From: an uncultured cyanobacterium
GTDB lineage: Bacteria > Cyanobacteriota > Cyanobacteriia > Cyanobacteriales > Nostocaceae
Length of the DNA: 64,000 nucleotides
NCBI GenBank assembly: GCA_963706595.1
Contig: OY970166.1
Span: 3,360,001 to 3,424,000, forward strand
Reading direction: 5' to 3'
This document shows positions 1 to 63,330 of this stretch, piece by piece. Both the position numbers and the translations under genes were made by a program. Position 1 is the first letter of the stretch. The number at the start of each line of letters is the position of its first letter. The notes beneath the pieces were generated by a model, which was not told where the DNA came from, did no database searches, and saw only the letters and a program-made list of their open reading frames with translations.

Positions 1-2322
1 GGCACAAAGGTGCAGAATGGTCAGGTTGTGGCTGAGTTGATTGATGAGCGCTACCGCACCAACACCGGGGGCTTCTTGAAGTTTGGCGGTGTGGAAGTTC
101 AGAAAAAAGGCAAAGCCAAGCTGGGTTATGAAGTGGTCCAGGGGGGAACTTTGCTGTGGATTCCCGAAGAAACCCACGAAGTGAATAAAGATATCTCCTT
201 GCTGTTGGTGGAAGATGGGCAGTTTGTGGAAGCCGGCACGGAAGTTGTCAAGGATATCTTCTGCCAAAACAGTGGTGTGATTGAAGTTACCCAGAAAAAC
301 GACATCCTTCGGGAAGTAGTGGTGAAGCCTGGGGAACTGTTGATGGTGGATGATCCAGAAGCAGTCATGGGCAGAGATAACACCTTTGTCCAACCTGGGG
401 AAGAATTCCAAGGAACTGTGGTGACGGAGTTACGCTACATCCAATATATTGAATCGACTGAAGGTCCGGCATTGTTGAGCCGTCCGGTGGTGGAGTTTGC
501 TGTACCCAATAACCCAGATGTGCCTTCGACTACATCTATTAGTCAACAAACGGGACGTTCAATTCAAATGCGGGCTGTGCAACGTCTGCCTTATAAGGAT
601 TCCGAACGGGTGAAGTCTGTTGAAGGTGTGGAATTACTGCGGACTCAGCTAGTGCTGGAAATTGAACAGGATGGGGAACAAGACCATTCTGCTTCTCCTT
701 TGGCTGCGGATATTGAACTGGTGGAGGATACGGAAAATCCCGAAGTTCAACGCTTGCAACTGGTGATTTTGGAATCTTTGGTAATTCGCCGAGATATTAC
801 CGCCGATGCCACCCAAGGCAGCACTCAGACGAGTTTGCAGGTGGAGGATGGAGACAGCATTGCCCCTGGTTCTGTGGTTGCCAGTACCCAAATTTTGGGT
901 AAAGAGGGGGGTATAGTGCGGGGTGTGCGAGCCGGTACGGAAGCGGTGCGTCGTTGTTTGGTGTTGCGTGATAGCGACAAAATCACTATGACTACTAGCG
1001 CCCAACCCAAGGTGAAGAAGGGTGATTTGTTGGTAGAAGGGGCAGAAATTGCTCCGGGGGTGTTCGCTGAGGATTCTGGGCAAGTATTGGAAGTAGTAGA
1101 TAATACTGCTGCATCTGCTACTGGGGAATCGGCGCTGACTGCCCAACAGTATGCCATCAATATCCGTGTTGGTCGTCCCTATCGAGTCAGCCCTGGGGCT
1201 GTGTTGCAGATAGAAGATGGGGATTTGGTGCAACGGGGCGATAATTTGGTGCTGTTGGTGTTTGAACGGGCGAAAACTGGAGACATTATTCAAGGTTTGC
1301 CTCGGATTGAAGAGTTGCTGGAAGCCCGTAAACCCAAGGAAGCTTGTATTTTAGCCAAGCGCTCTGGTGAACTGAAGGTGGTTTATGCTGAGGGTAGTGA
1401 TGAAGCGATCGCTGCTAAAGTCATAGAACCCAATGGTGTAGTTACAGATTATCCTCTCGGACCTGGACAGAATTTAATGATGCCAGATGGCTCAATGATT
1501 TCCGCCGGTGAACCGTTGAGTGATGGACCATCTAACCCCCATGAGATTTTGGAGGTATTCTTTAGCCTGGGTTCTGAGGATGGGGTTTATGCTTGTGCCA
1601 GTCATGCTTTGCAGAAGGTGCAGACATTTTTGGTGAATGAAGTGCAGATGGTGTATCAGTCCCAGGGGATTGAGATTTCTGACAAGCACATTGAGGTAAT
1701 TGTCCGCCAGATGACCAACAAAGTCAGGATTGATGATGGTGGAGACACTACCATGCTGCCTGGGGAGTTGGTGGAACTGCGCCAAGTGGAACAGGTGAAT
1801 GAAGCCATGGCCATTACTGGCGGGGCGCGGGCGCAATATACGCCGGTGCTGTTGGGGATTACTAAGGCATCGTTGAACACCGACAGCTTCATTTCGGCGG
1901 CATCTTTCCAAGAGACTACGCGGGTACTCACCGAAGCAGCGATTGAAGGTAAATCTGACTGGCTGCGAGGACTGAAGGAAAACGTGATTATCGGGCGTTT
2001 GATTCCGGCTGGTACTGGTTACAATACCTATGAGGAACCAGGGGCGATTGATGAATATGCGATCGCTGATACCAATGCGGTGTTGGATGAAATTGATGAT
2101 CCTCTGGATATGGTGCTAGATGACCGCACAGCGCGTACCTACAACTTAGAATCTGCTGGGTTGGCGGAAACTGGATTTGGCAAACGACGTGCCGAAAGAC
2201 CTATTTTGGATGAAGAAGATGAGTTGATTGCTGATGAAGTGAGCGACTTGGTAGAAGAAGAAGATGATGATGAGGATGATTACGAAGAAGTAGATGACGA
2301 TGAAGATGATTACGATAGCTAG
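1..2322 (+). CDS. rpoC2: RNA polymerase beta'' subunit, 3' part (start lies upstream of the window)
   Basis: Motifs [63 protein letters not shown]; acidic tail. Confidence 0.98.
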
Positions 2323-2362
2323 TGTGGCGTAGCCATAGATTAAAGCTAAAACTTCAACAGAT

Positions 2363-2396
2363 AAAAGGCAAAAGAAGTCATTCTTTTGCCTTTTTA
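2363..2396 (+). terminator. Intrinsic terminator after rpoC2
   Basis: AAAAGGCAAAAGAA-gtca-TTCTTTTGCCTTTT hairpin followed by T-run. Confidence 0.65.
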
Positions 2397-2424
2397 CTTT
2401 TGACTTGTTTCGGAAAATCTGCTC

Positions 2425-2562
2425 CAATCCAGTTCAGTTAAGCAATTCTTTCCTTCTCTTTCTTTTCTTGATCAGTCTTCTGCACCTTTGTGGTATACAC
2501 TGCACGAATGTTAAAAAAAATGACTTTAACCAAGAGTTTGGTTCCTTAACTGAACCGTATTG
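2425..2562. mobile_element. MITE-like element, 138 bp, 18-bp terminal inverted repeats
   Basis: CAATCCAGTTCAGTTAAG (2425-2442) vs CTTAACTGAACCGTATTG (2545-2562), 16/18 complementary; no clear target duplication. Confidence 0.7.
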
Positions 2563-2611
2563 TGTAAAATGCTGGAATTCTATCTGCAAAAATAAACTCC
2601 CTATACACAAA

Positions 2612-2935
2612 ATGCCTTTTAAAATTATTCAAAACTTTGATACCAGTTTCACTCTACAAGCACAAGCACAAGAAACTTTATTCCAATTGTTGCAAAGTGA
2701 ATCTTTTTTACAACAAATTTGCCAACAGTCCAAATTTGAAAAAGTTGAATTTACAGAACTACTTTTTCAGCCAGTTCCTTACAGCTTATCTACTCCTAAA
2801 GGAATGCCAGCAGAATTGGAAAAATATAATGAGTCTGACGAGTATGTAATTATCAACGTACCGCCAAATTTTATGTTCACCGCCAAGATTTTCCAACCCA
2901 GTCGCCTTTGTGCAATTTATCAAAAAATTGGTTGA
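2612..2935 (+). CDS. Hypothetical protein, 107 aa
   Basis: ATG at 2612 after the MITE; the ORF-track extension upstream runs through repeat DNA. Confidence 0.65.
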   Translation: MPFKIIQNFDTSFTLQAQAQETLFQLLQSESFLQQICQQSKFEKVEFTELLFQPVPYSLSTPKGMPAELEKYNESDEYVIINVPPNFMFTAKIFQPSRLCAIYQKIG

Positions 2936-2979
2936 TGATCTCGCAATTATCAAGGCATAGCAAGTTTTAGGTTTTATAT

Positions 2980-3525
2980 ATGACTAATGAAATAAATATT
3001 CCGGCTTTAGCAAATTTGGAGTATTTTCCTTACATTGACGAGCATGGGCAATTACCTGAAATTTATCAGGGAAAAATAGGAGTTTATGCCATCTTTAACC
3101 AAGAGCAGGTGCTGCAATTTGTAGGGTATTCCCGCGATGTTTACCTGAGTCTAAAGCAGCATTTAGTCCGTCAGCCTCAAGAATGTTATTGGGTGAAAGT
3201 TCAAACTATCTCCCGCCCTAGCCGCACAATTTTAGAAAATATTGAAAATGCTTGGATTGCTGAAAATGGTAGTGTTCCTTTAGGAAATGCAGATAATCAG
3301 GAAATCTGGACACAGCCGATAAATGTTAAACCGTTAATGACTTCTGAAGAACAAGAGAAATATCACCATCCAGCTAATGATGAATTGGCAGAAATCAAAA
3401 TCATTAAAAATGTGGCTAGGCGAGTAGAAGCAGAAATTTTATTGGTGTTGAAGGAACGGGGTTTGCAGGAACAATTTCGTTTTAGTCCTAAGTTGAAGGA
3501 GGAGGGGTTGTTGGATTTGAAGTGA
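2980..3525 (+). CDS. GIY-YIG nuclease-like protein (cyanobacterial/plant GrxS16 N-terminal type)
   Basis: GVYAIF...QFVGYSRDVYLSLKQHL motif. Confidence 0.85.
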   Translation: MTNEINIPALANLEYFPYIDEHGQLPEIYQGKIGVYAIFNQEQVLQFVGYSRDVYLSLKQHLVRQPQECYWVKVQTISRPSRTILENIENAWIAENGSVPLGNADNQEIWTQPINVKPLMTSEEQEKYHHPANDELAEIKIIKNVARRVEAEILLVLKERGLQEQFRFSPKLKEEGLLDLK

Positions 3526-3609
3526 ATTGAGGTGGGGAGTTTAAACGCAAAGGGGCGCGGAGTGAAGCGCAAAGGTACGCAGAGGTTTGATGTGGGTGAA
3601 GGACCATTT

Positions 3610-5013
3610 ATGCAAATACTGCTAAACAACCGTTATCAAGTAATTCGGACTTTGGGAAGTGGTGGATTTGGGGAAACTTTTCTGGCGGAGGATACTCAAA
3701 TGCCTTCTAGCCGTTCTTGTGTGATTAAACAGCTCAGACCAATTCAGAATAATCCCCAAATTTATCAGTTGGTACAGGAACGGTTTCAACGAGAAGCGGC
3801 AATTTTAGAAGAGTTGGGTGGATGTATTGACCAAATACCGACGCTATATGCTTACTTTCAGTCGCAGGGGCAATTTTATTTAGTTCAAGAGTGGGTTTCA
3901 GGTGATACTTTAACGGCAAAACTGCAAAAGCAGGGGTTGTTTAGTGAAACTGCTGTGGGGGAAATTTTACTGGATTTGTTACCAGTGCTGGAGTATGTTC
4001 ATTCGCAGCGTATTATTCACCGTGATATCAAGCCGGATAACATTATGCTGCGTCATCGTGACGGTAAATCGGTGTTAATTGATTTCGGTGCGGTGCGGGA
4101 ATCAATGGGAACGGTGGTTAATTCTCAAGGTCTTCCTACCAGTTCGATTGTGATTGGTACGCCGGGATATATGCCGAGTGAGCAAGCAGCCGGCAGACCA
4201 GTTTATTCTAGTGATTTATATAGTTTGGGATTGACAGCGATTTATTTACTGACGGGGAAACAACCACAACAGTTAGAGTCAGATTCTCAGACAGGTGAAA
4301 TTGTCTGGCGACACTATGCTAGCCACATTAATCATACATTAGCAGGGGTGATAGACCGAGCGATCGCCTATCACCCACGAGATCGCTTTCCCACTGCCAG
4401 AGCTATGTTAGATGCATTACATCCCGTAGCAAATCCGATTCCACCGACACAACCGATTTTTGCACCACCACCAACTGTTCCTGTTAATCAGCAGACTGTA
4501 ACTCAAAGCAATAATCACCGTAGTATCCTCATGGGTGGTGTGATTGCAGGTGGGTTAATCGGTGCATCTGTAATTCTTAGTCAGGTATTGAAACCTTCCC
4601 CTCAACCTGTAGTTAACCAAGAAGTCACACCCACAGTTACAGAAACTCCTGTTGTCTCTTCATCTCCAGTCATCCAGAAAAATATTACATCTCCAGTCAT
4701 CCCACAAACTATATTGCCATCTACTACAACAAACAGTTATTTGTGGCTGTCGGAAAGAGCCGTAATTGATGCTGATTTGGAGGAAAAAGACGGTTTGGAG
4801 CTAGATATTATGCGAAATTCAATTTATGCTCGTCACGGTCGTCGCTTTGATACTCCTGGATTACAACAATATTTTAATAATCAAACTTGGTATAATCCGG
4901 TATACTCACCAAAAGCATTTCCTCCTAAATTACTGTCAAATTTAGAGCAGCGTAATGCTGAATATATTAGTAAATTTCAAGACCGTTATCAAAGAAGACA
5001 TTTTCCGAAATAA
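3610..5013 (+). CDS. Membrane Hanks-type Ser/Thr kinase with C-terminal YARHG domain
   Basis: LGSGGFG, HRDIKPDN, DFG, GTPGY; TM helix; RNSIYARHGRRF. Confidence 0.93.
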   Translation: MQILLNNRYQVIRTLGSGGFGETFLAEDTQMPSSRSCVIKQLRPIQNNPQIYQLVQERFQREAAILEELGGCIDQIPTLYAYFQSQGQFYLVQEWVSGDTLTAKLQKQGLFSETAVGEILLDLLPVLEYVHSQRIIHRDIKPDNIMLRHRDGKSVLIDFGAVRESMGTVVNSQGLPTSSIVIGTPGYMPSEQAAGRPVYSSDLYSLGLTAIYLLTGKQPQQLESDSQTGEIVWRHYASHINHTLAGVIDRAIAYHPRDRFPTARAMLDALHPVANPIPPTQPIFAPPPTVPVNQQTVTQSNNHRSILMGGVIAGGLIGASVILSQVLKPSPQPVVNQEVTPTVTETPVVSSSPVIQKNITSPVIPQTILPSTTTNSYLWLSERAVIDADLEEKDGLELDIMRNSIYARHGRRFDTPGLQQYFNNQTWYNPVYSPKAFPPKLLSNLEQRNAEYISKFQDRYQRRHFPK

Positions 5014-5090
5014 TTAGGAGTTTAAACGCAAAGGGGCGCGGAGTGAAGCGCAAAGGTACGCAGAGGTTTGATGTGGGTGAAGGACCATTT

Positions 5091-6662
5091 ATGCAAATAC
5101 TGCTAAACAACCGTTATCAAGTAATTCGGACTTTGGGAAGTGGTGGATTTGGGGAAACTTTTCTGGCGGAGGATACTCAAATGCCTTCTAGCCGTTCTTG
5201 TGTAATTAAACAGCTTAGGCCAATTCAGAATAATCCCCAAATTTATCAGTTGGTACAGGAACGGTTTCAACGAGAAGCGGCAATTTTAGAAGAGTTGGGT
5301 GGATGTATTGACCAAATACCGACGCTGTATGCTTACTTTCAGTCGGAGGGGCAATTTTATTTAGTTCAAGAGTGGGTTTCAGGTGATACTTTAACGGCAA
5401 AACTGCAAAAGCAGGGGTTGTTTAGTGAAACTGCTGTGGGGGAAATTTTACTGGATTTGTTACCAGTGCTGGAGTATGTCCATTCGCAGCGTATTATTCA
5501 CCGTGATATCAAGCCGGATAACATTATGCTGCGTCATCGTGACGGTAAATCGGTGTTAATTGATTTCGGTGCGGTGCGGGAATCAATGGGAACGGTGGTT
5601 AATTCCCAAGGTCTTCCTACCAGTTCGATTGTGATTGGTACGCCGGGATATATGCCGAGTGAGCAAGCAGCCGGCAGACCAGTTTATTCTAGTGATTTAT
5701 ATAGTTTGGGATTGACAGCGATTTATTTACTGACTGGAAAACAACCACAACAGTTAGAGTCAGATTCTCAGACAGGTGAAATTGTCTGGCGACAGTATGC
5801 TAGCCACATTAATCATACATTAGCAGGGGTGATAGACCGAGCGATCGCCTATCATCCACGCGATCGCTTTCCCACTGCCAGAGCGATGTTAGAGGCATTA
5901 CAATTAGGGTCAACAAGTTTCCCTTCTACAGTCGCTTATCAACATCCAGTAGTAGCCACAGCACCGCCTCAAATCCCATCTCAACACACAGTTGCGGTTA
6001 GCCCAGGAGCGACTATTTCCCAGCCTCCTGAGCCAGCTAGGGGAAAAAAAGGAATTTTTCTCGGCAGTTTAATTGTCGGTGGTTTAATAGGCGCTTCTAT
6101 CATTATTGGTTTTGCCCTTAATAGACCTCCGCAACCAGTTACCCAATTAACGGACTCATTTAAAGAACCTGCGCCCAATCGAAATGAAGTGCCGAATATT
6201 ACAGAACCTGCACCAAATCCTATTGAACCACCAGAAGTTATACCACCTGTAAATTCTCTACCTCCTGCAAGAGTTATTTCTCAACCCCCATCTTCTCCAC
6301 CTCCTGCGGTAACACAGCCAGAAATTAATCGACCAACTCCTACCGAAGCTGTACAAAATTATTATGTCAATATTAATCAGGGTGAATATGAAAATGCGTG
6401 GAATCAACTAGCTCCCAGTCTACAAAGTAATCAACGTCTTCATCCCGATGGTTATCTTTCTTACATCGACTGGTGGGGAGGAAAGGTTGAAAGCGTCAAT
6501 GTTGAACAAGTTAGTTTGTTAGAAGCCAGTACAGAAACAGCCACCGTCAATGCTAAGTTTAAATACTTGATGAAAAATGGTAGACAAGTTCCTGGTGCTG
6601 TGAGCTTTTCCCTTTTATGGGATGCTGAAAATAGCCGATGGGTCGTTAGTCAAGTTAAATAG
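5091..6662 (+). CDS. Membrane Ser/Thr kinase; kinase domain nearly identical to the upstream gene, different (NTF2-like?) C-terminal domain
   Basis: Same kinase motifs; TM helix; Pro-rich linker; C-terminal PTEAVQNYY..INQGEYENAWNQL domain. Confidence 0.92.
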   Translation: MQILLNNRYQVIRTLGSGGFGETFLAEDTQMPSSRSCVIKQLRPIQNNPQIYQLVQERFQREAAILEELGGCIDQIPTLYAYFQSEGQFYLVQEWVSGDTLTAKLQKQGLFSETAVGEILLDLLPVLEYVHSQRIIHRDIKPDNIMLRHRDGKSVLIDFGAVRESMGTVVNSQGLPTSSIVIGTPGYMPSEQAAGRPVYSSDLYSLGLTAIYLLTGKQPQQLESDSQTGEIVWRQYASHINHTLAGVIDRAIAYHPRDRFPTARAMLEALQLGSTSFPSTVAYQHPVVATAPPQIPSQHTVAVSPGATISQPPEPARGKKGIFLGSLIVGGLIGASIIIGFALNRPPQPVTQLTDSFKEPAPNRNEVPNITEPAPNPIEPPEVIPPVNSLPPARVISQPPSSPPPAVTQPEINRPTPTEAVQNYYVNINQGEYENAWNQLAPSLQSNQRLHPDGYLSYIDWWGGKVESVNVEQVSLLEASTETATVNAKFKYLMKNGRQVPGAVSFSLLWDAENSRWVVSQVK

Positions 6663-10972: not shown

Positions 10973-11013
10973 AAATGACTAATGACCAATGACCAATGAC
11001 CAATGACTAATGG
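10973..11013. repeat. STRR heptamer array (AATGAC[C/T])n
   Basis: About 5-6 tandem heptamers between rplK and rplA. Confidence 0.85.
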
Positions 11014-21998: not shown

Positions 21999-22104
21999 TA
22001 TAGCGGTTATCAGTTAAGTGAGATACAAGAACCCCACCCCCAACCCCCTCCCCGCAAGCGAGGAGGGGGCTATGATGTACTTCATTCAAGTGGATAACGC
22101 TATA
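21999..22104. mobile_element. MITE-like shell (TATAGC ends) enclosing a GC hairpin repeat
   Basis: TATAGCGGTTATCAGTTAAGTGAG... vs ...TTCATTCAAGTGGATAACGCTATA, imperfect inverted ends. Confidence 0.6.
22030..22069 (-). repeat. CCCCTCCTCGCTTGCGGGGAGGGG-type hairpin repeat, copy 1
   Basis: Reverse complement of the copies at 24581, 25346 and 52862. Confidence 0.85.
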
Positions 22105-22822: not shown

Positions 22823-24535
22823 CTAATAATGACTTGCCGTTTTACGTTGATGCACAGCAGTCACACCATCTTTATTTAAGACTTTGCCATTATCTACCGT
22901 GGCATATACCAGCCAATGATCACCCGATTCTAAGCGACCTTGTACGGAACATTCCAAATATGCCAAAGCATCAGTGAGGATAGGACAACCACTTTCGCTG
23001 TCCTGGGTAGCGACATCACCAAATCGGTCTTGTCCTGGGGCAAAAGGTTTGAGAAAATGTTTCATTAAGCCTATATGCTTACCTTCAGGGAGAATATTGA
23101 GGACAAATTTATTTCCTGAGTGCATCAGCGCTTCTAAAGCCCGGTCTTTGGCTACAGCTATGGTTAAACCAGGAGGATTAAAGCTGGCTTGAGACACCCA
23201 AGAGGCTAACATGGCGCTGGAGATATCGCCTTCTTTGGCTGTAACGACGCTCAGAGAACCCACAATGCGCCCCACCGCTTGTTCTACATTTGTGGCTGGT
23301 TGGCTGGGAACCCGCACTTTTTTAGCTTTTTTCAACGCTTGGGCAAAATCGGTTCCGGCTTCTTCACACAATTGTAAGGTGACATCATTGGGTTTGAATT
23401 TGACCCGAATGGCATCAAAACCGAATCTGTAACCCGCGTCTTTGAGTTTGTTTTCAATTAAATCGACAGCTTCACCACTCCAACCAAAAGAACCAAACAC
23501 CCCAGCCAGTTTATTATTTGTGGCGGTGGAGAGGACAATTCCTAACGCTGTTTGCACTGGTGTGGGTGCGTGACCGCCCAGGGTAGGTGAACCGATGACG
23601 AAACCGGCAGATTTTTCCACAGCAGCGCGGATTTCTTCGGGTTCTGTAAATTCACAGTTAATTGATTCGACGGCTACGCCAGCTTTAGTAATACCACGAG
23701 CGATCGCCTGAGCTAATGTAGCTGTATTTCCATAGGCTGAAGCATAAATCATCGCCACTGTCAAGTCAGAAGATGCTTGTTGTTGCAGCCATTGCCGATA
23801 AGCTTTAGTCAGTTCGATTAAGCCATAACGGACTATGGGGCCATGTCCAGTGGCGTACATTCTTGTCGGTAAATCAGCCAGTTTATCTAATGCTGTTTCC
23901 ACTTGACGCGCATGGGGAGCCATCAGACAATCAAAATAATAGCGTCGGTCTTCGTTGATTGTCTCCCAGCCTTCATCAAATACCTGATCACCACAAATAT
24001 GCGCCCCAAATAGCTTATCTGAGTAAAGAATTTCTGTTTGTGGGTCATAAGTGCAGAGTTGGTCTGCATAACGGGGGTTAGGGGTGGGAATGAACTGTAA
24101 ATCATGTCCTTTACCTAAATTCAGGGTTTCTTCGCCCCGCATGACGATAATTGGTAAATCCTGATTTTCTAAAATATCCCGTAAATTTTTGGCTCCAGGA
24201 TTAGAACAGACAAAGGTAATCTGTGGTGCTAGCTCTAATAAAGCTTTGATGGTGGCGGCGCGGTTGGGATTAATATGACCCAGAATTACATAATCAATGG
24301 TGGTTAAATCCATCCGTTGCTGCAATGCTTCCAGGTAACTTTGAGTGAATGTTTCTCCTGGAGGGTCAATTAAAGCAATTTTATCACCTTGAATTTTATA
24401 AGAATTAGCCGTTGTACCCTTAGCTAAAGCATATTCAATTTCAAATCTCAGTCTTGACCAACTGCGCGATCGCATAACTGTGGTATCTGTACCAATGGGA
24501 AGAACTTGAACGTCACGGGGTTTATTTTCTGACAT
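22823..24535 (-). CDS. flv1: Flavodiiron protein Flv1 (Flv1A-type)
   Basis: PRDVQVLPI, RLRFEIEY, non-canonical GHINPNR, flavodoxin YASAYGNT, flavin reductase GDHW. Confidence 0.88.
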   Translation of the reverse strand: MSENKPRDVQVLPIGTDTTVMRSRSWSRLRFEIEYALAKGTTANSYKIQGDKIALIDPPGETFTQSYLEALQQRMDLTTIDYVILGHINPNRAATIKALLELAPQITFVCSNPGAKNLRDILENQDLPIIVMRGEETLNLGKGHDLQFIPTPNPRYADQLCTYDPQTEILYSDKLFGAHICGDQVFDEGWETINEDRRYYFDCLMAPHARQVETALDKLADLPTRMYATGHGPIVRYGLIELTKAYRQWLQQQASSDLTVAMIYASAYGNTATLAQAIARGITKAGVAVESINCEFTEPEEIRAAVEKSAGFVIGSPTLGGHAPTPVQTALGIVLSTATNNKLAGVFGSFGWSGEAVDLIENKLKDAGYRFGFDAIRVKFKPNDVTLQLCEEAGTDFAQALKKAKKVRVPSQPATNVEQAVGRIVGSLSVVTAKEGDISSAMLASWVSQASFNPPGLTIAVAKDRALEALMHSGNKFVLNILPEGKHIGLMKHFLKPFAPGQDRFGDVATQDSESGCPILTDALAYLECSVQGRLESGDHWLVYATVDNGKVLNKDGVTAVHQRKTASHY

Positions 24536-24570
24536 AGCTTTTGTTTTTTATTTCTAATTTCTTATTTCTA

Positions 24571-24622
24571 ATAATTCTTGTCCCCCTCCTCGCTTGCGGG
24601 GAGGGGCTAGGGGTGGGGTCTT
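24571..24622 (+). repeat. GC hairpin repeat, copy 2 (inverted arm abutting the DUF559 stop)
   Basis: ATAATTCTTGTCCCCCTCCTCGCTTGCGGGGAGGGGCTAGGGGTGGGGTCTT. Confidence 0.9.
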
Positions 24623-25169
24623 ATTCCAACCAACGCGCAATTTCCTCTAAAACACTCTCCATCCTCAACAAAACATCCTCATTCTTAAACCTCACCACCC
24701 GCAAACCCAAAGATTCTAAAAACTCTTGTCGAATAGCATCTTCTACTTGAGTGTAATTGTGAACCTCTCCATCCACCTCAATCACTAATTTGATTTCGTG
24801 GCAATAAAAGTCAACGATAAATCTATCAATAATCTGCTGACGACGAAACTTAAAACCTCGCAGTTGCTGATTTTTTAATCTTTGCCAAAGTTGCTTTTCT
24901 GCTGATGTGGGTTCAGTCCGCATCTGTCGGGCTAGAGGTTTAAGTTGTTTCCAGAGGTCTGGTGGGCTTTGCCAAGAGACCCCACCCCCTAGCCCCCTCC
25001 CCGCAAGCGAGGAGGGGGGACAGGAGTTATTTGACTCTGTAAGCGAGGAGGGGGGACCGGAGTTGTTTGACTCTGTAAGTGTGGAGGGGGGATTGGAGTT
25101 GTTTGACTCTGTAAGCGAGGAGGGGGGATTGGAATGAGGATTACTGGTGATGTGTTGATTTTGCATCAT
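24621..25169 (-). CDS. DUF559 (Vsr-like/PD-(D/E)xK-fold) putative endonuclease with repeat-derived N-terminus
   Basis: ARQMRTEPTSAEKQLWQRL, KFRRQ, IVDFYC, LVIEVDGEVH, D..R..FLESLGLRVVRFKN. Confidence 0.9.
   Translation of the reverse strand: MMQNQHITSNPHSNPPSSLTESNNSNPPSTLTESNNSGPPSSLTESNNSCPPSSLAGRGLGGGVSWQSPPDLWKQLKPLARQMRTEPTSAEKQLWQRLKNQQLRGFKFRRQQIIDRFIVDFYCHEIKLVIEVDGEVHNYTQVEDAIRQEFLESLGLRVVRFKNEDVLLRMESVLEEIARWLE
24977..25133 (-). repeat. GC hairpin repeat, copy 3, plus 36-bp tandem repeat (x about 3.6) inside the DUF559 ORF
   Basis: Inverted copy at 24977-25030; units AAGCGAGGAGGGGGGANNGGAGTTRTTTGACTCTGT at 25005, 25041, 25077 and partial at 25113. Confidence 0.9.
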
Positions 25170-25345
25170 TTCATATTGCTATTTAAGTATTTAGCAAAGG
25201 CGGCGTGGGTTTCTTCACAACGCTTTCACTTGAGGTTGAGACTATTAAACTCTATGGTTTTCCCCCTACTCCCTACTCCCTGTCTTCATAGCTAGGGTGT
25301 ACACAATCCTGATTCATAAATAAAGGATTTAACCGGAAATCCAGT

Positions 25346-25386
25346 TCCCCTCCTCGCTTGCGGGGAGGGGTTAGGGGTGGGGTCTT
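25346..25386 (+). repeat. GC hairpin repeat, copy 4
   Basis: TCCCCTCCTCGCTTGCGGGGAGGGGTTAGGGGTGGGGTCTT. Confidence 0.88.
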
Positions 25387-25420
25387 ATGTCAGAAAAAAA
25401 CGATTTCCCCACTACCTCAC

Positions 25421-27145
25421 TTAATAATGGTTCCCGACTTTGCGATGATGGACGGCTGTGAGTGCTTCTGGTTTAGAAACTCGTCCTTCGTAAACGTTGC
25501 TATATACTGCCCAGTGGTCGCCGCAGTCCATCCGACTGACAACTTCACACTCCATATAAGCTAAGGCATCGGCGAGGATGGGAGCGCCGTTTTGGGCGGG
25601 CTGAGTTCTCACTCCTTCAAAGCGATCCGCACCAGGGGCGAACCTCTTTAAGAAGTGTCTCATGAGTGTTTGGTAATTGCCTTCTTCTAAGACGTTGAGG
25701 ACAAAGCGATCGCCTACTTGCATCAGTGATTCAATCGCCCTATCCTTAGCCACAGCAATGGATAATCCCATCGGTTTGAAGCTGGCTTGGGAAACCCAGG
25801 AGGCTAACATAGCGCTGGATACATCGCCTTTTTTGGCGGTAATAATATATAGTCCCCCACTGATTCTGCCTAGTGCTTTGTCTAGGTCTGCACCGAGAGA
25901 TTTCATGGCTTTGATGCTGCGATCGCGTGTTACCCATTGTCCCAAGTCTGTACCTGCTTCTTCACAAAGTTGGTAAGTGTTTTCTGTGGGGGTTTGTTTA
26001 ATCCGAATCGCTGGGAAAACTGTTGTTAAACCCAAGTTACGGAATTTACTCAACAGAGGATCTATAGGTTCGTCATCGCCTCCACCTGTTTCAAAGATGC
26101 CGATGGCTTGTTTTTCCTTAGCAGATCCGATAATCGTACTGAGTGCCGCTTGGATATTAGCATTACTTTCTGCCGGCGGCATCCCCACCACAATTCCTGT
26201 GCAACGGCTGACTAATTCTCGCAGTTCTTGTAAATCAACCCCTGCGCCTAAATCCACAATTTCCACAGCGACATCGGTTTTATTAATACCTTTGGCTATG
26301 GCTTGGGCTAGGCGATCGCTATACCCATATTCGGAAACGTAAAATATCCCCACTGCTGTTTCCGCTTTGCTTTGGCTTTGGCTCCAAATGCGATAACGTC
26401 CAGTTAACTCTTCAACATTGTGAGATAATAAGGGACCGTGACCAGTGGCAATCATCTCAATGGTTTTCAGTTCAGCCATCCGCTTCAGAGCAGATAAAAC
26501 TGACCGCGCATTTGGTCCCATTAAGCACTCGTAGTAATATTTAAAATCTGCTTCAATTGCTGCTAAATCTTCATCAAAGGTGCTATCTGAGCAATAATGC
26601 AGCCCAAAAGCATCACAAGTGTAAAGAATTTTCGTTTGATGATCGAAGCTGAATATAGTATCTGGCCAGTGTAAATTAGGAGCAATCACAAATTCAAATT
26701 CGTGACCATTACCTAAATCTAGGCGATCGCCATTTTTAACAATTTGGCGTTTAAACGGCTGATGGACTAAATTTTCCAGAAACTGGATTGCAACTTTAGA
26801 AGCCACAACAGTGATATCTGGAGCCATTTTTAGCAAATCTTTCACTAAGCCGCTATGATCTGGCTCGGTGTGGCTGATAATTAGATAATCAATTTCTGTG
26901 GGATTGATTAATCCGGTGAGGGTGTCAAAATATAACTGGCGAAACTTTTCGTGAGAAGTATCAACTAAGGCAGTTTTTTCACCGCGAACCAGAAACGAGT
27001 TATAGGTTGTACCGTTTTGTAACCCGAACTCAATATCAAAGCGATCGCGATCCCAATCCAAAGACCGAATAGCGATCGTTTCTTGAGCAATCTTCACAGT
27101 CTCTATGGTGAGCCGTTTTTCTGTTCTTTCGGTGAGTGCTACCAT
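25421..27145 (-). CDS. flv3: Flavodiiron protein Flv3 (Flv3A-type)
   Basis: DWDRDRFDIEFGLQNGTTYN, canonical SHTEPDH, HWPD, ends HRKVGNHY. Confidence 0.9.
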   Translation of the reverse strand: MVALTERTEKRLTIETVKIAQETIAIRSLDWDRDRFDIEFGLQNGTTYNSFLVRGEKTALVDTSHEKFRQLYFDTLTGLINPTEIDYLIISHTEPDHSGLVKDLLKMAPDITVVASKVAIQFLENLVHQPFKRQIVKNGDRLDLGNGHEFEFVIAPNLHWPDTIFSFDHQTKILYTCDAFGLHYCSDSTFDEDLAAIEADFKYYYECLMGPNARSVLSALKRMAELKTIEMIATGHGPLLSHNVEELTGRYRIWSQSQSKAETAVGIFYVSEYGYSDRLAQAIAKGINKTDVAVEIVDLGAGVDLQELRELVSRCTGIVVGMPPAESNANIQAALSTIIGSAKEKQAIGIFETGGGDDEPIDPLLSKFRNLGLTTVFPAIRIKQTPTENTYQLCEEAGTDLGQWVTRDRSIKAMKSLGADLDKALGRISGGLYIITAKKGDVSSAMLASWVSQASFKPMGLSIAVAKDRAIESLMQVGDRFVLNVLEEGNYQTLMRHFLKRFAPGADRFEGVRTQPAQNGAPILADALAYMECEVVSRMDCGDHWAVYSNVYEGRVSKPEALTAVHHRKVGNHY

Positions 27146-27256
27146 AGTTGGCCTCCTTGACACAATGAGTATATTTTCCTCTAGTTTTATTGTGACACGC
27201 CTGGATTATTAAGTTTTATTGAAAAATATAATGAATGACTTCAAAAAATTAAAAGT

Positions 27257-28081: not shown

Positions 28082-28187
28082 ATTCTCCCCACTCCTAAAT
28101 TCTCCCATCTCATATTCTCCCATCTCATATTCTCCCCTCTCATATTCTCCCCTCTCCTTAATAAGGAGAGGGGCTGGGGGTGAGGTT
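28082..28187 (+). repeat. CCCCTCTCCTTA-A-TAAGGAGAGGGG hairpin with GGGGGTGAGGT tail, preceded by 15-bp tandem copies of its left arm
   Basis: ATTCTCCC[A/C]TCTCAT at 28099, 28114, 28129, leading into the hairpin at 28149-28173. Confidence 0.85.
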
Positions 28188-30435: not shown

Positions 30436-30490
<55 letters not shown>

Positions 30491-36559: not shown

Positions 36560-37363
<804 letters not shown>

Positions 37364-52861: not shown

Positions 52862-52900
52862 TCCCCTCCTCGCTTGCGGGGAGGGGCTGGGGGTGGGGTT
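52862..52900 (+). repeat. GC hairpin repeat, copy 5
   Basis: TCCCCTCCTCGCTTGCGGGGAGGGGCTGGGGGTGGGGTT. Confidence 0.88.
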
Positions 52901-54239: not shown

Positions 54240-55114
54240 CAAGGCTTTTTGGACTTGTGTGTACTGTAATTTCCCCTTGATTAAAGCTGGAAAACAAATT
54301 CCGGCTCCCTCTCCTTACCAAGGAGACGGTTGGGGTGAGGTTTTTTATGGCTTTCTCAAAAAGTTTTGTCGGATCTGTTGTCGCGTAGCGCAATGCACCA
54401 TCCTAGATTATCGGTGCGTTAGGACTAAAGTCCATAACACACCCTACCCAAATCAAAGGTTTTTGGACTTGTGTGTACTGTAATTTCCCCTTGATTAAAG
54501 CTGGAAAACAAATTCCGGCTCCCTCTCCTTACCAAGGAGAGGGTTGGGGTGAGGTTTTTTATGGCTTTCTCAAAAAGTTTTGTCGGGTCTGTTGTCGCGT
54601 AGCGCAATGCACCATCCTAGATTATCGGTGCGTTAGGACTAAAGTCCATAACACACCCTACCCAAATCAAAGGTTTTTGGACTTGTGTGTACTGTAATTT
54701 CCCCTTGATTAAAGCTGGAAAACAAATTCCGGCTCCCTCTCCTTACCAAGGAGAGGGTTGGGGTGAGGTTTTTTATGGCTTTCTCAAAAAGTTTTGTCGG
54801 GTCTGTTGTCGCGTAGCGCAACGCACCATCCTAGATTATCGGTGCGTTAGGACTAAAGTCCATAACGCACCCTACTGGCGTGACAAGGCTAAAATGTTGC
54901 AATAGATTTTTGAGAAAATCGAGATAAATCAATGTTTTCTGCTTTTTACCTAATGCACTATTTTAAGCTTGCCACGCTACTACCCAAATCAAAGGTTTTT
55001 GGACTTGTGTGTACTGTAATTTCCCCTTGATTAAAGCTGGAAAACAAATTCCGGCTCCCTCTCCTTAGTAAGGAGAGGGTTGGGGTGAGGTTTTTTATGG
55101 TTGTCTCAAAAAGT
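54240..55114. repeat. 214-bp composite tandem repeat: three full units and one partial
   Basis: GGACTTGTGTGTACTG at 54251, 54465, 54679 and 55001; units nearly identical. Confidence 0.95.
54876..54979. mobile_element. 104-bp MITE inserted in the tandem array, CTAC duplicated
   Basis: CTAC|TGGCGTGACAAGGCTAAAAT...ATTTTAAGCTTGCCACGCTA|CTAC. Confidence 0.75.
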
Positions 55115-62724: not shown

Positions 62725-63258
62725 ATGAGTGCAACTAGTTCTTTTCTACCTCACAAAATTATTGGTGTGGCTGTAATTTGGAACGACCACGAGCAAATTT
62801 TAATTGATCGTCGTCTTCCAAAAGGTGAAATGGGTGGTTTATGGGAATTTCCCGGTGGCAAAATTGAGCTTGGTGAAACCATCGAAGAGTGTATTCAACG
62901 GGAAATTCAAGAAGAACTAGCAATAGAAATTGAAGTAGGAAAGCATTTGATCACCATTGATCATACTTACACTCACTTGCGCGTCACTCTGACTGTGCAT
63001 CACTGTCGTCTGATTACAGGTATTCCTCAACCCATAGAATGCGATGAAATTTGCTGGGTAAATTTGGATGATTTGGAGAAGTTTACTTTTCCCGCAGCTA
63101 ATAGTCAAATTATCGCCGCATTGAAACGGGGAATGGGGAGTGGGGAGTGGGGAGTAGGGGGGGAAGAGGAAGGGGAGCAGGGAGCAGGGAGCAGGGAGCA
63201 GGGAGCAGGGGAGCAGGGAGCAGGGAGCAGGGGCGAGAAGACGGTAACTTCCCAATAA
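62725..63258 (+). CDS. mutT: 8-oxo-dGTP diphosphatase with STRR-derived C-terminal tail
   Basis: WEFPGGKIE.GET..ECIQREIQEEL, FPAAN. Confidence 0.9.
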   Translation: MSATSSFLPHKIIGVAVIWNDHEQILIDRRLPKGEMGGLWEFPGGKIELGETIEECIQREIQEELAIEIEVGKHLITIDHTYTHLRVTLTVHHCRLITGIPQPIECDEICWVNLDDLEKFTFPAANSQIIAALKRGMGSGEWGVGGEEEGEQGAGSREQGAGEQGAGSRGEKTVTSQ

Positions 63259-63330
63259 CCAATAACTAATGACCAATGACTAATGACTAATGACTAATGA
63301 CCAATAACTAATGACTAATGACTAATGACC
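63128..63330 (+). repeat. Ordered composite STRR cassette
   Basis: (GGGGAGT)n-GAAGAGG-(CAGGGAG)n-AACTTCCCA-(AATRACY)n. Confidence 0.9.

Follow-up and report, generated by a model that had tools for sequence, protein, structure and literature searches.

A DUF559 nuclease gene between inverted triplex motifs in a Nostocaceae cyanobacterium: a possible homing-like cassette

Triplex motifs (TMs), which also go by the names PIT elements and BoxC, are a class of bacterial repeat for which we know of no partner protein. DUF559 is a very widespread domain whose function, to our knowledge, is not settled. Passages of Holder et al. (2015, PMC4666352) describe the TM as a GC-rich homopurine-homopyrimidine hairpin with a G-rich third strand that follows it as a mirror image, present in hundreds of mainly intergenic copies, abundant in Anabaena and Nostoc and associated with local rearrangement. 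The same passages report that triplex formation was demonstrated for the Escherichia coli motif, link the motifs to genomic instability, and state that no mobility functions were found near those of E. coli. REP/REPIN repeats are dispersed hairpins that come with RAYT (TnpA-REP), a transposase of the HUH Y1 type; in the parts of Bertels and Rainey (2011, PMC3116915) drawn on here, the single-copy RAYT gene lies between the dispersed hairpins of its genome, and the repeats occur also as inverted doublets. Two nuclease families complete the comparison. Free-standing homing endonuclease genes of the Vsr-like EDxHD type are represented by I-Bth0305I (PDB 3R3P). Caulobacter VsrA is a DUF559 protein described in sections of PMC12907096 as an active nuclease that damages DNA in vivo and whose methyltransferase partner is unlinked; those sections are silent on repeats around vsrA.

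The locus compared here with these systems lies in a 64,000-nucleotide stretch of contig OY970166.1 from an uncultured cyanobacterium of the Nostocaceae, called the window below. A DUF559 ORF is bracketed by inverted copies of a GC hairpin with a G-rich tail, and a third copy lies upstream (Table 1). The preliminary description had reported inward-facing inverted repeats around the DUF559 core, a repeat translated inside the protein, a third copy just upstream and a position between flv3 and flv1, and on all four points it was right. The arms of the inverted pair (24582-24606 and 24994-25018) show 100% complementarity over 25 nt, and the tails (24598-24618 and 24981-25001) add a further 21 nt at 81%. 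The upstream copy (25337-25388) repeats 24573-24624 in direct orientation over 52 nt at 90%, down to the TCTTAT after the tail. The inner copy is translated as PPSSLAGRGLGGG at residues 51-63, provided that the upstream ATG is the start. Both the PPSSLAGRGLGGG part and the 36-bp tandem repeat lie outside the DUF559 domain and are modelled as disordered (pLDDT 47-62), and the copy number of the tandem repeat is 1-5 across orthologous loci. The two flanking ORFs each have the flavodiiron domain set of ODP/Lactamase_B, Flavodoxin_1 and Flavin_Reduct. The DUF559 stop codon (24621-24623) falls within the repeated TCTTAT, the last letters of TM1, so the repeat does touch the stop as described, but this is a general habit of the motif (81 of 3709 proxy genes, see below) and is not special to DUF559.

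Table 1. Features of the cassette, its neighbours and the remaining motifs of the window
Feature	Position	Strand	Remarks
Solo triplex motif, family 1	22032..22069	-	
Flavodiiron gene (flv3 of the preliminary description)	22823..24535	-	570 aa; start 37 nt from TM1
TM1	24573..24624	+	Hairpin 24583-24606, 3-nt turn, mirror tail to 24618, then TCTTAT; tail toward gene
DUF559 ORF	24621..25169	-	182 aa, stop included; Pfam domain residues 75-181 = 24627-24947
TM2	24980..25018	-	Inverted motif copy within DUF559 ORF; tail gene-ward; read as PPSSLAGRGLGGG
36-bp tandem repeat	25005..25133	.	3.6 copies; TM2 outer arm plus 21 nt; in frame (12 codons)
ORF start-codon region and unique upstream spacer	25134..25290	-	
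Worn copy of MITE-like unit (~160 bp)	25290..25415	+	Holds TM3 (25347-25382)
Flavodiiron gene (flv1 of the preliminary description)	25421..27163	-	580 aa; stop adjoins MITE-like unit
Solo triplex motif, family 2	28149..28187	+	AAGGAGAGGGG arm, GGGGTGAGGTT tail
Solo triplex motif, family 1	52863..52898	+	
Four family-2 motifs	54241..55092	+	Three in 214-bp tandem repeat (54241-54875, 3.0 copies), one at 55057-55092

By its sequence, the repeat is a member of the intrastrand triplex motif class already described and is not REP in kind. The assignment rests on the tail, which is a mirror copy of the stem's purine arm, a feature that does not bear out the REP-like nature ascribed to the hairpin in the preliminary description. 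Stems and tails co-vary in two families, GGGGAGGGG occurring with GGGGTGGGG and AAGGAGAGGGG with GGGGTGAGGTT. Variants that had been taken to combine a different stem with the same tail thus differ in their tails, each of which mirrors its own stem. The 24-nt core has five exact occurrences in the window (22045-, 24583+, 24994-, 25347+ and 52863+), and 0 of 100 shuffles matched; the first and last of these place the same element far from the cassette, as had been noted near 22030 and 52862. GGGGTGRGGT is found 10 times in the window against 0.13 expected, including 28177, 54332, 54546, 54760 and 55082. The 3' arm and tail align in 9-11 consecutive purine-motif triplets (12 in one case) in 266 of the 310 hairpin-plus-tail elements of genome G000, compared with at least 9 triplets in 689 of 1550 controls in which tails were dealt to other elements. 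A generic TM finder returned 9 motifs in the window and 329 in G000. For the generic pattern search, the control was the pattern read backward, and because mirror repeats match this control too, that search yields counts only; the totals for motif-rich genomes that come from it are plain counts. Rfam at gathering thresholds matched only tRNA and the L10 leader in the 64-kb window, so the repeat is not a described RNA family.

Like the published TMs, most copies are intergenic. Stop-to-stop proxy ORFs of at least 150 aa contain 33 of the 329 motifs, and just 17 of the 329 are in sense orientation inside any proxy ORF. Unlike the TMs in the cited passages of PMC4666352, the motifs placed in the triplex class by sequence here stand at the two ends of a nuclease gene in inverted orientation. 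The arrangement resembles that of RAYT in having a single-copy nuclease-type gene, the only DUF559 gene of G000, between hairpins dispersed in about 330 copies, and resembles REPINs in the occurrence of inverted doublets, 12 of which lie tail-outward within 200 bp. It departs from REP, as presented in the cited parts of PMC3116915, in its third mirror block, its fixed polarity with tails inward and the predominance of singlets among the 310 elements. One motif subfamily is carried at 39 places in G000 within a unit of about 160 bp that has palindromic ends. Such nesting of short repeats in larger ones is a likeness to the MITEs of Nostocales and to the small dispersed repeats of Nostoc, reportedly treated by Elhai et al. 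in 2008. The sole known link of this MITE-like unit to DUF559 is that two of its copies in G000 retain some 25 nt from the 3' end of DUF559 at the same TM junction, a trace of decay. The cassette has inverted ends, as a TIR transposon or MITE does, but a comparison of filled and empty sites gives no target-site duplication, and a Pfam scan finds no transposase domain within it.

The protein matches Pfam DUF559 (PF04480) with E = 4.5e-37 and 126.7 bits against a cut-off of 20.6, over residues 75-181 only, and is the one DUF559 match in the whole of G000. Pfam matches at E 0.01 or better are DUF559 and MTES_1575 only; the Vsr profile is not matched. Residues E131, D133, G134 and H137 of the E-x-D-G-x-x-H motif are invariant across 25 sequences, and a median dN/dS of 0.27 over 78 pairs indicates purifying selection. 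The structural model has pLDDT 87-96 over the domain, with residues 1-68 modelled as disordered. The best fold match is 3HRL (TM-score 0.84; phmmer E 8e-20), followed by the homing endonuclease I-Bth0305I at 0.77-0.78, and Vsr (1CW0/1VSR) scores 0.48. The model agrees with the Vsr-like alpha/beta nuclease fold and conserved acidic/His motif proposed earlier, and the nearest characterised enzyme by predicted fold is a homing endonuclease. The differences from I-Bth0305I are that no intron or intein is present, that identity is only 21%, and that the presumed target, rather than a unique site split by the insertion, would be a dispersed repeat of many copies left whole on both sides. The protein belongs to the same fold superfamily as Vsr and VsrA; unlike Vsr it has no adjoining cytosine methyltransferase, its neighbours being the two flavodiiron genes, and its fold match to Vsr is the weaker one. 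A Vsr-fold hydrolase of the PD-(D/E)XK type also differs from the HUH Y1 transposase of RAYT (cited parts of PMC3116915). G000 contains 8 Y1_Tnp matches, none with a motif pair within 1.5 kb and one with a single motif 135 nt away, and a RAYT partner for the repeat was rejected on this count (0 of 8). Membership in a listed defence system was likewise rejected, since PADLOC gave only weak, domain-level matches (DpdF, 1e-5; mREase_II, 3e-4). Carriage by phages was rejected too, with just 2 distant matches among 50,697 phage records.

The hairpin family is associated with DUF559 genes specifically and with a fixed polarity, tails inward. The 41 relatives provided 38 non-orthologous DUF559 loci. 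In the 60 nt 3' of the domain, 12 of these loci show an antisense (inward) tail and none a sense tail; within 80 nt 5' of the domain, 6 of the 38 have a sense tail and none an antisense tail. Locally, 279 kb of background contain 21 tails. In the motif-richest genome, an antisense motif lies within 60 nt of the stop in 81 of 3709 proxy genes (2.2%), and the excess at DUF559 genes (12/38, 32%) has P = 1.9e-11. The enrichment near DUF559 relative to other genes that the preliminary description called for is thus found, with an orientation ratio of 12:0. A set of 80 close relatives was analyzed with a sequence-blind TM finder. Tail-inward motifs lie upstream in 41, downstream in 46, on both sides in 31, on either side in 56 and on neither in 24, and wrong-way motifs in 6 upstream and 4 downstream, against a background of 26 TMs in 536 kb. 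The 24 of 80 relatives in which the finder gave no TM are counted against the homing-like reading set out below.

At least one inward motif is present in 9 of the 16 context clusters of this set. Different DUF559 clades are bracketed by different stems that match the motif families of their own genomes, and a nested bracket surrounds DUF559 on a Pseudanabaena plasmid. DUF559 relatives with motifs include Chloroflexota and plasmids, and in-frame copies lie within restriction-modification genes of two phyla, one MmeI-type and one Eco57I-type. The one TM near E. coli ycjD is found 168 nt downstream, facing away from it (n = 1); this too is counted against the homing-like reading set out below, and as support the motif is suggestive at best. 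Among titles, abstracts and passages, a range that leaves subscription journals largely outside, no publication was found that pairs DUF559 with triplex motifs, and DUF559 and ycjD have 0 occurrences in the triplex-motif paper PMC4666352.

Of 10 congeners, 6 carry the cassette at the flv3-flv1 site, as do 5 further genera. The empty sites that the preliminary description proposed to look for among relatives exist, in 4 of the 10 congeners, which are scattered on the tree of the flanks. Beyond the gene ends, nothing in the empty spacers (G002, G005, G007 and G010) aligns with filled ones, so no clean insertion junction or uninterrupted target is definable. A clean insertion junction or target duplication was accordingly rejected, and the family-2 site is a replacement rather than a clean excision. 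The motif-bounded core has dS values of 0.07-0.43, from 342 nt and genome pairs that are not independent; the same pairs give 0.20 to more than 2.5 for the two flanking genes and 0.76-1.38 for other neighbours. Synonymous divergence of the core is 3-10 times below that of its neighbours and the boundary is sharp. The upstream leader and spacer, at 76-78% between genera, are as diverged as the flanking genes, unlike the core. This pattern of divergence suggests that the TM-bounded core is much younger than its flanks at the flv3-flv1 site. In the Nostoc context DUF559 dS equals flank dS, which argues against a built-in synonymous constraint; the cassette there looks vertical at a normal rate and hence is not mobile everywhere. 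Incongruence between the DUF559 and flank trees is not significant (AU p 0.41; genus monophyly not rejected) and was discarded as proof of transfer. The DUF559 branches are compressed, not rearranged, which leaves room for another cause of the low dS.

Core orientation is identical in 13 of 13 flv-context loci. Stop-bearing copies of DUF559 in G005, G010, G011, G016 and G040 mark decay, the gene is absent from 13 of 41 relatives, and it has been lost repeatedly within one genus with the motifs retained. A small, apparently selfish gene, present or absent at a fixed site, with a core that seems younger and with signs of decay and loss, would be like a homing endonuclease gene. In public sequencing runs the best share of the stretch was 0.21, with the motifs piled high. 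Pieces of the core came from a lake metagenome (221 nt, no difference) and a metatranscriptome contig (162 nt, 5 differences). All four runs mapped consist of contigs and contain no joints across the cassette, and neither expression nor excision is shown.

The best explanation of the locus is a selfish, homing-like DUF559 nuclease cassette whose ends are inverted TMs with the G-rich third strands facing inward, a reading built on comparative sequence that we hold tentatively, at somewhat under an even chance. The mechanism would start with the DUF559 nuclease recognizing TM DNA, either from its sequence or from a hairpin or triplex that it extrudes, and nicking or cutting beside it. The break would be repaired through recombination with a cassette-bearing copy. 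Because both ends of the cassette are TMs, the core would be copied or replaced between them, and after DNA uptake the cassette could spread in a homing-like manner to related lineages, here into their flv3-flv1 spacer. Decay and loss would follow. The same breaks would make TMs recombination-prone, which may be why the 36-bp repeat varies and the spacer turns over fast. A tail-to-tail pair of TMs is the expected empty landing site, yet this '+-' pair is the rarest arrangement in G000 (1 of 27 neighbour pairs within 200 bp), which counts against the homing-like reading. We regard as doubtful the broader proposal that DUF559 is the missing TM partner in Cyanobacteria, Chloroflexota and Proteobacteria, a nuclease that would recognize the folded DNA, cut next to it and cause both its own homing between motif pairs and the dispersal and instability of solo motifs through break-induced copying.

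Other explanations share part of this evidence. The preliminary description proposed a REPtron analogue: DUF559 would multiply the solo triplex motifs and scatter them through the genome, its gene lying between two copies of its own substrate as a RAYT gene lies between REPs. The polar association serves this proposal as well as it serves the homing-like reading, and it also fits a single-copy gene facing about 330 motifs, flanking motifs that are letter-identical to the dispersed consensus, and Y1/RAYT genes of which none is flanked by motif pairs. Genome counts, with kinship ignored, point the same way: the motif median is 55 in DUF559-positive genomes vs 14 (one-sided P 0.008) and 32 vs 12 outside the genus (P 0.07), filled flv sites go with more family-1 motifs (P 0.036), and the presence of the family-2 paralog goes with more family-2 motifs (P 0.09). 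Dispersal by DUF559 nevertheless meets motif-rich genomes with no DUF559 match (144 motif matches in G022; 71 each in G019, G026 and G007), a kind of finding that the preliminary description had itself named as refuting, and it is unproven. Family-2 motifs number 113 in G000 and 114 in G003, two genomes that lack the family-2 DUF559 paralog, which in congeners has family-2 ends. The motifs are mostly singlets and not two-ended units, and many ride in the larger MITE-like unit, whose own ends point to other vehicles for their spread. We also know of no strand-transfer chemistry in a hydrolytic PD-(D/E)XK nuclease, and we judge this mode of dispersal unlikely. Passive association would instead have motifs gather in hypervariable spacers and at stops, with DUF559 as an ordinary host repair nuclease of the Vsr-like kind that by chance occupies such places and has brought old motif copies with it through descent. 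Gene 3' ends are indeed favoured in general, with 123 of 329 motifs starting within 60 nt after a proxy-gene stop, antisense to sense 2:1 and many abutting the stop, and the motifs of G000 cluster strongly (27 neighbour pairs within 200 bp vs 3.4 expected). At the site of the congeners' family-2 cassette, G000 has a family-1 motif right after the neighbour's stop, which indicates that spacers turn over regardless of DUF559. Vertical inheritance in the Nostoc context and the Caulobacter protein VsrA, a host nuclease tied to cytosine methylation in the cited sections of PMC12907096, are compatible with this account. Its difficulty is quantitative, since a 2.2% background stands against 32% of the 38 loci and 46/80, the orientations are 12:0 and 46:4 and not 2:1, and brackets enclose 31/80 loci on both sides when sense motifs within proxy ORFs are so few (17/329). 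Distinct DUF559 clades carry motif families matching their own genomes, and no methyltransferase gene adjoins DUF559. Passive descent leaves the younger core unexplained, and the in-frame copies in restriction-modification genes of two phyla are not accounted for either. The passive account is in our estimate improbable.

A host-serving or regulatory role is a further alternative, in which the nuclease clears triplex or hairpin blocks and the motifs at its own gene act as sensor or autoregulator, or the core is an invertible switch. The tie of triplex motifs to genomic instability in the cited passages of PMC4666352, the purifying selection on the protein and its long retention at syntenic sites would suit such a role, as would the report, in the part of PMC9881135 cited here, that DUF559 proteins are 14-fold enriched among predicted inversion targets (genes with inverted repeats), a published hint that also speaks for the homing-like reading. 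The constant orientation of the core at all 13 flv-context loci shows no inversion, and a host function agrees poorly with repeated loss of the gene in one genus while the motifs persist and with its complete absence from 13 of 41 relatives. We consider this role very unlikely. The homing-like cassette thus remains the reading that we prefer, at the tentative strength given above.

The pairing matters because it offers a candidate protein partner for triplex repeats, a repeat class that has had none for decades. Catalogues of these repeats span hundreds of bacterial genomes, and a link to instability has been drawn; we know of no protein or spreading mechanism assigned to them. A specific, polar pairing that crosses phyla turns this into a concrete and cheaply tested hypothesis for both DUF559 and the triplex repeats. 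Should the pairing fail, the strong enrichment would still need a targeting rule of the repeats. If it is true, it would be a second selfish system of enzyme plus repeat beside REP-RAYT, with another enzyme and another DNA structure. One cause of the turnover of cyanobacterial spacers would then be explained, and a nuclease that recognizes DNA structure would become available.

The DUF559 gene lies in the flv3-flv1 spacer, between two flavodiiron genes, of a single-contig genome (G000, 5.57 Mb, 41% G+C). It is the only DUF559 gene in G000, and its coding sequence occurs there once. Residues 75-181 of the 182-aa ORF match Pfam DUF559 (E 4.5e-37). The inverted repeats described around the gene were confirmed as two 25-nt arms of perfect complementarity, as was the copy upstream, which repeats the first directly and includes the TCTTAT that follows its tail. 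The ORF stop codon falls within this repeated TCTTAT. The inverted copy is indeed translated within the ORF, as PPSSLAGRGLGGG, and upstream of it that copy's outer arm is the building block of a tandem repeat with 36-bp units in frame (3.6 copies). The 24-nt repeat core has five exact occurrences in the window versus 0 in 100 shuffles, and the tail occurs 10 times versus 0.13 expected. A 15-nt inverted match between the left flavodiiron gene start and the sequence just past the third motif may be due to chance because its second arm is part of a MITE-like unit.

Locations of features in the window, and in G000 contig C1 or other loci where named
Feature	Location	Strand	Basis or detail
Flanking flavodiiron gene	22823-24535	minus	domain content
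Flanking flavodiiron gene	25421-27163	minus	domain content
DUF559 ORF, 182 aa, between both flavodiiron genes	24621-25169	minus	ORF and Pfam match
Inverted repeat arms	24582-24606, 24994-25018		25 nt each
Third repeat copy	25337-25388		52 nt, 90%
15-nt inverted match	24522-24536, 25386-25400		93%
214-bp tandem unit	54241-54875		3.0 copies, 98% identity
Fourth family-2 motif of the 54-55 kb area	55057-55092		
Intergenic 7-nt tandem repeats	10974-11012, 30437-30489, 36565-36683, 63128-63330		
MITE-like units with ORF 3'-end match	G000:C1 ~2974243, ~4300229		
Inverted motif pairs deep within long ORFs	G000:C1 1013798/1013843, 1601672/1601768		
In-frame cassette within MmeI-type restriction-modification gene	L074 (G028) 1686-5885		
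In-frame cassette within Eco57I-type restriction-modification gene	L145 3138-5660		
In-frame cassette within 4.8-kb plasmid gene	L163 415 onward		two motif families, one bracket nested within another

Genome-wide, 399 tails were found in G000, and a hairpin precedes 310 of them. By the triplex rule for purine motifs, in which G faces G and A faces A or T, the tail is a mirror image of the stem's purine arm, and at least 9 consecutive rule positions occur in 266/310 hairpin-plus-tail elements compared to 689/1550 when tails were dealt to other elements as a control. Stem and tail co-vary in two families, GGGGAGGGG(G) with GGGG(G)TGGGG and AAGGAGAGGGG with GGGGTGAGGTT. The preliminary description of different stems sharing the same tail was mistaken; tails are not constant, each co-varying with its stem as a mirror copy. 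A finder coded with the mirror rule alone, and given no sequences, returned 9 motifs in the window and 329 in G000. Judged by its sequence, the repeat architecture is that of the intrastrand triplex motif (TM) class surveyed by Holder et al. 2015 (PMC4666352). The accessible text of that survey reports large TM numbers in Anabaena and Nostoc, ties TMs to genomic instability, states that mobility functions were never found near the E. coli motifs, and contains no mention of DUF559 or ycjD. Literature searches found no published statement of a DUF559-TM pairing.

The motifs are clustered in G000, with 27 neighbor pairs within 200 bp versus 3.4 expected. One subfamily of 39 copies is carried within a ~160-bp unit with palindromic ends (MITE-like), and the third copy near the DUF559 gene is such a unit. 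In two of these units, the motif tail is followed directly by ~25 nt matching the 3' end of the DUF559 ORF, and both look like relics of former junctions between a motif and the cassette (the DUF559 ORF plus its inverted flanking copies, tails inward). The 214-bp tandem unit contains one family-2 motif per copy (families 1 and 2 differ in stem). Well inside stop-to-stop ORFs of at least 150 aa lie 15/329 motifs. Intergenic 7-nt tandem repeats are also numerous in the window; short tandem repeats of this kind are common in heterocyst-forming cyanobacteria. There are eight Y1_Tnp matches in G000, none of which (0/8) lies within 1.5 kb of a motif pair, and the REP-RAYT explanation is therefore inapplicable and was rejected.

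Motif placement was measured at 38 non-orthologous DUF559 loci from 41 related genomes, with orthologs of the window locus counted once. On the 3' side, an antisense tail was within 60 nt of the domain in 12/38 loci and a sense tail in 0/38; on the 5' side, a sense tail was within 80 nt in 6/38 and an antisense tail in 0/38. The local background more than 1 kb from the gene was 21 tails in 279 kb. Motifs prefer gene ends in general. An antisense motif starts within 60 nt of the stop in 81/3709 G000 proxy genes (2.2%) and a sense motif does so in 42/3709, so the contact with the stop codon, although real at DUF559, is a general habit of the motif and not special to this gene. The motif supplies its own stop triplet. 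Enrichment near DUF559 relative to other genes held against the stricter 2.2% null (12/38, P 1.9e-11). A second sample took 80 loci in species genomes whose proteins are close relatives of this one (59-90% identity). Tail-inward motifs were upstream in 41/80, downstream in 46/80, on both sides in 31/80, on either side in 56/80 and on neither in 24/80; wrong-way motifs numbered 6 upstream and 4 downstream, and the background was 26 motifs in 536 kb. The 80 loci form 16 flank-similarity clusters, 9 of which have a tail-inward motif, and the independent contexts are therefore far fewer than 80. Of the 15 Chloroflexota loci in this sample, 5 are flanked by a motif on one or both sides. A published hint is an available table of PMC9881135 in which DUF559 proteins are 14-fold enriched among predicted inversion targets, which are genes containing inverted repeats. 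The DUF559-TM pairing is real, polar and widespread.

Family-2 motifs bracket DUF559 in three congeners, further families of the order have DUF559 clades enclosed by different stems, and on a Pseudanabaena plasmid DUF559 sits within two brackets, one nested in the other. In-frame cassettes occur within larger genes (table). Residues E131, D133, G134 and H137 are invariant across 25 diverse sequences. The predicted structure is confident over the DUF559 domain and disordered over residues 1-68, and the model matches the DUF559 protein 3HRL (TM-score 0.84) ahead of the homing endonuclease I-Bth0305I (0.77-0.78) and Vsr (0.48). The accessible part of PMC12907096 reports that Caulobacter VsrA, a DUF559 protein, causes a DNA-damage response in cells without a cytosine methylase; thus, DUF559 proteins can be active nucleases in vivo.

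The cassette occupies the flv3-flv1 site in 6/10 congeners. Empty sites, which had been suggested as something to look for in relatives, were found in 4/10 (G002, G005, G007 and G010) as short unrelated spacers with neither motif nor gene. The G007 spacer consists of short tandem repeats of the 7-nt intergenic kind. Empty genomes are scattered on the flanking-gene tree, one being sister to a filled genome at support 99 and another at 93. Five further genera have the cassette in the same spacer, and the 36-bp unit is present in 1 to 5 copies. Purifying selection acts on the protein (median dN/dS 0.27, range 0.10-0.76, 78 pairs). Using the same genome pairs for all regions, dS was 0.07-0.43 for the DUF559 core, 0.20 to over 2.5 for the two flanking genes and 0.76-1.38 for four other neighbor genes. 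In the clearest pair, the core has third-position differences of 0.04-0.14, and the first 25 codons of each flank show a jump to 0.24-0.48. Identity is 85-91% in the motif-to-motif core but 76-78% in the leader, which lies upstream of the inverted motif and is as diverged as the flanks. Within the 114-codon core alignment, codons 26-50 (window 24798-24872) have zero third-position differences versus three other genera, and the remainder has 0.08-0.36. In the large Nostoc context, DUF559 and its neighbor have equal dS (~0.4 versus 0.4 in 30 comparisons, 1.1 versus 1.1 in one) except for a single closer pair (0.09 versus 0.24), and dS between contexts is saturated; therefore, the gene's synonymous sites are under no built-in constraint. 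Most simply read, these alignments indicate that the core at this site has a more recent common ancestor than its surroundings, which would mean that the core was exchanged among lineages. Arguing against this, the core tree is compressed, not rearranged, genus monophyly was not rejected (AU p 0.41), and the divergence estimates come from 342 nt. The cassette was lost from the flv3-flv1 site in some lineages and was probably exchanged among lineages there.

The preliminary description proposed that DUF559 nicks and disperses the hairpin family as a REPtron analogue. The polar, widespread pairing agrees with this analogy, and motif counts trend higher in genomes with DUF559 (P 0.008 across all genomes and 0.07 with the genus excluded; family 1, P 0.036; family 2, P 0.09; kinship being ignored in each). 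The dispersal part fared worse. A DUF559 hit is absent from 13/41 relatives, yet four of these hold 71-144 generic motif matches, evidence of the kind that the preliminary description had named as refuting (hairpin-rich genomes without DUF559). Family-2 motifs number 113 in G000 and 114 in G003, both of which lack the family-2-bracketed DUF559 paralog carried by G001, G002 and G006. At the paralog site, G000 has 112 bp (G000:C1:2331944-2332055) with a single family-1 motif directly after the neighbor's stop; three congeners have a family-2-bracketed cassette of ~650 bp at the matching site. In the E. coli K-12 fabI-ycjD spacer (L160 5205-5240), the sole motif is 168 nt downstream of ycjD in the sense orientation with its tail away from the gene. 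Dispersal of the motifs by DUF559 is accordingly considered unlikely.

A passive association of DUF559 with the motifs is also doubtful, and a host or regulatory role for DUF559 is improbable. The leading reading, held tentatively and with every biochemical step putative, is that DUF559 and its motifs may constitute a homing-like selfish cassette that has the motifs as its ends.
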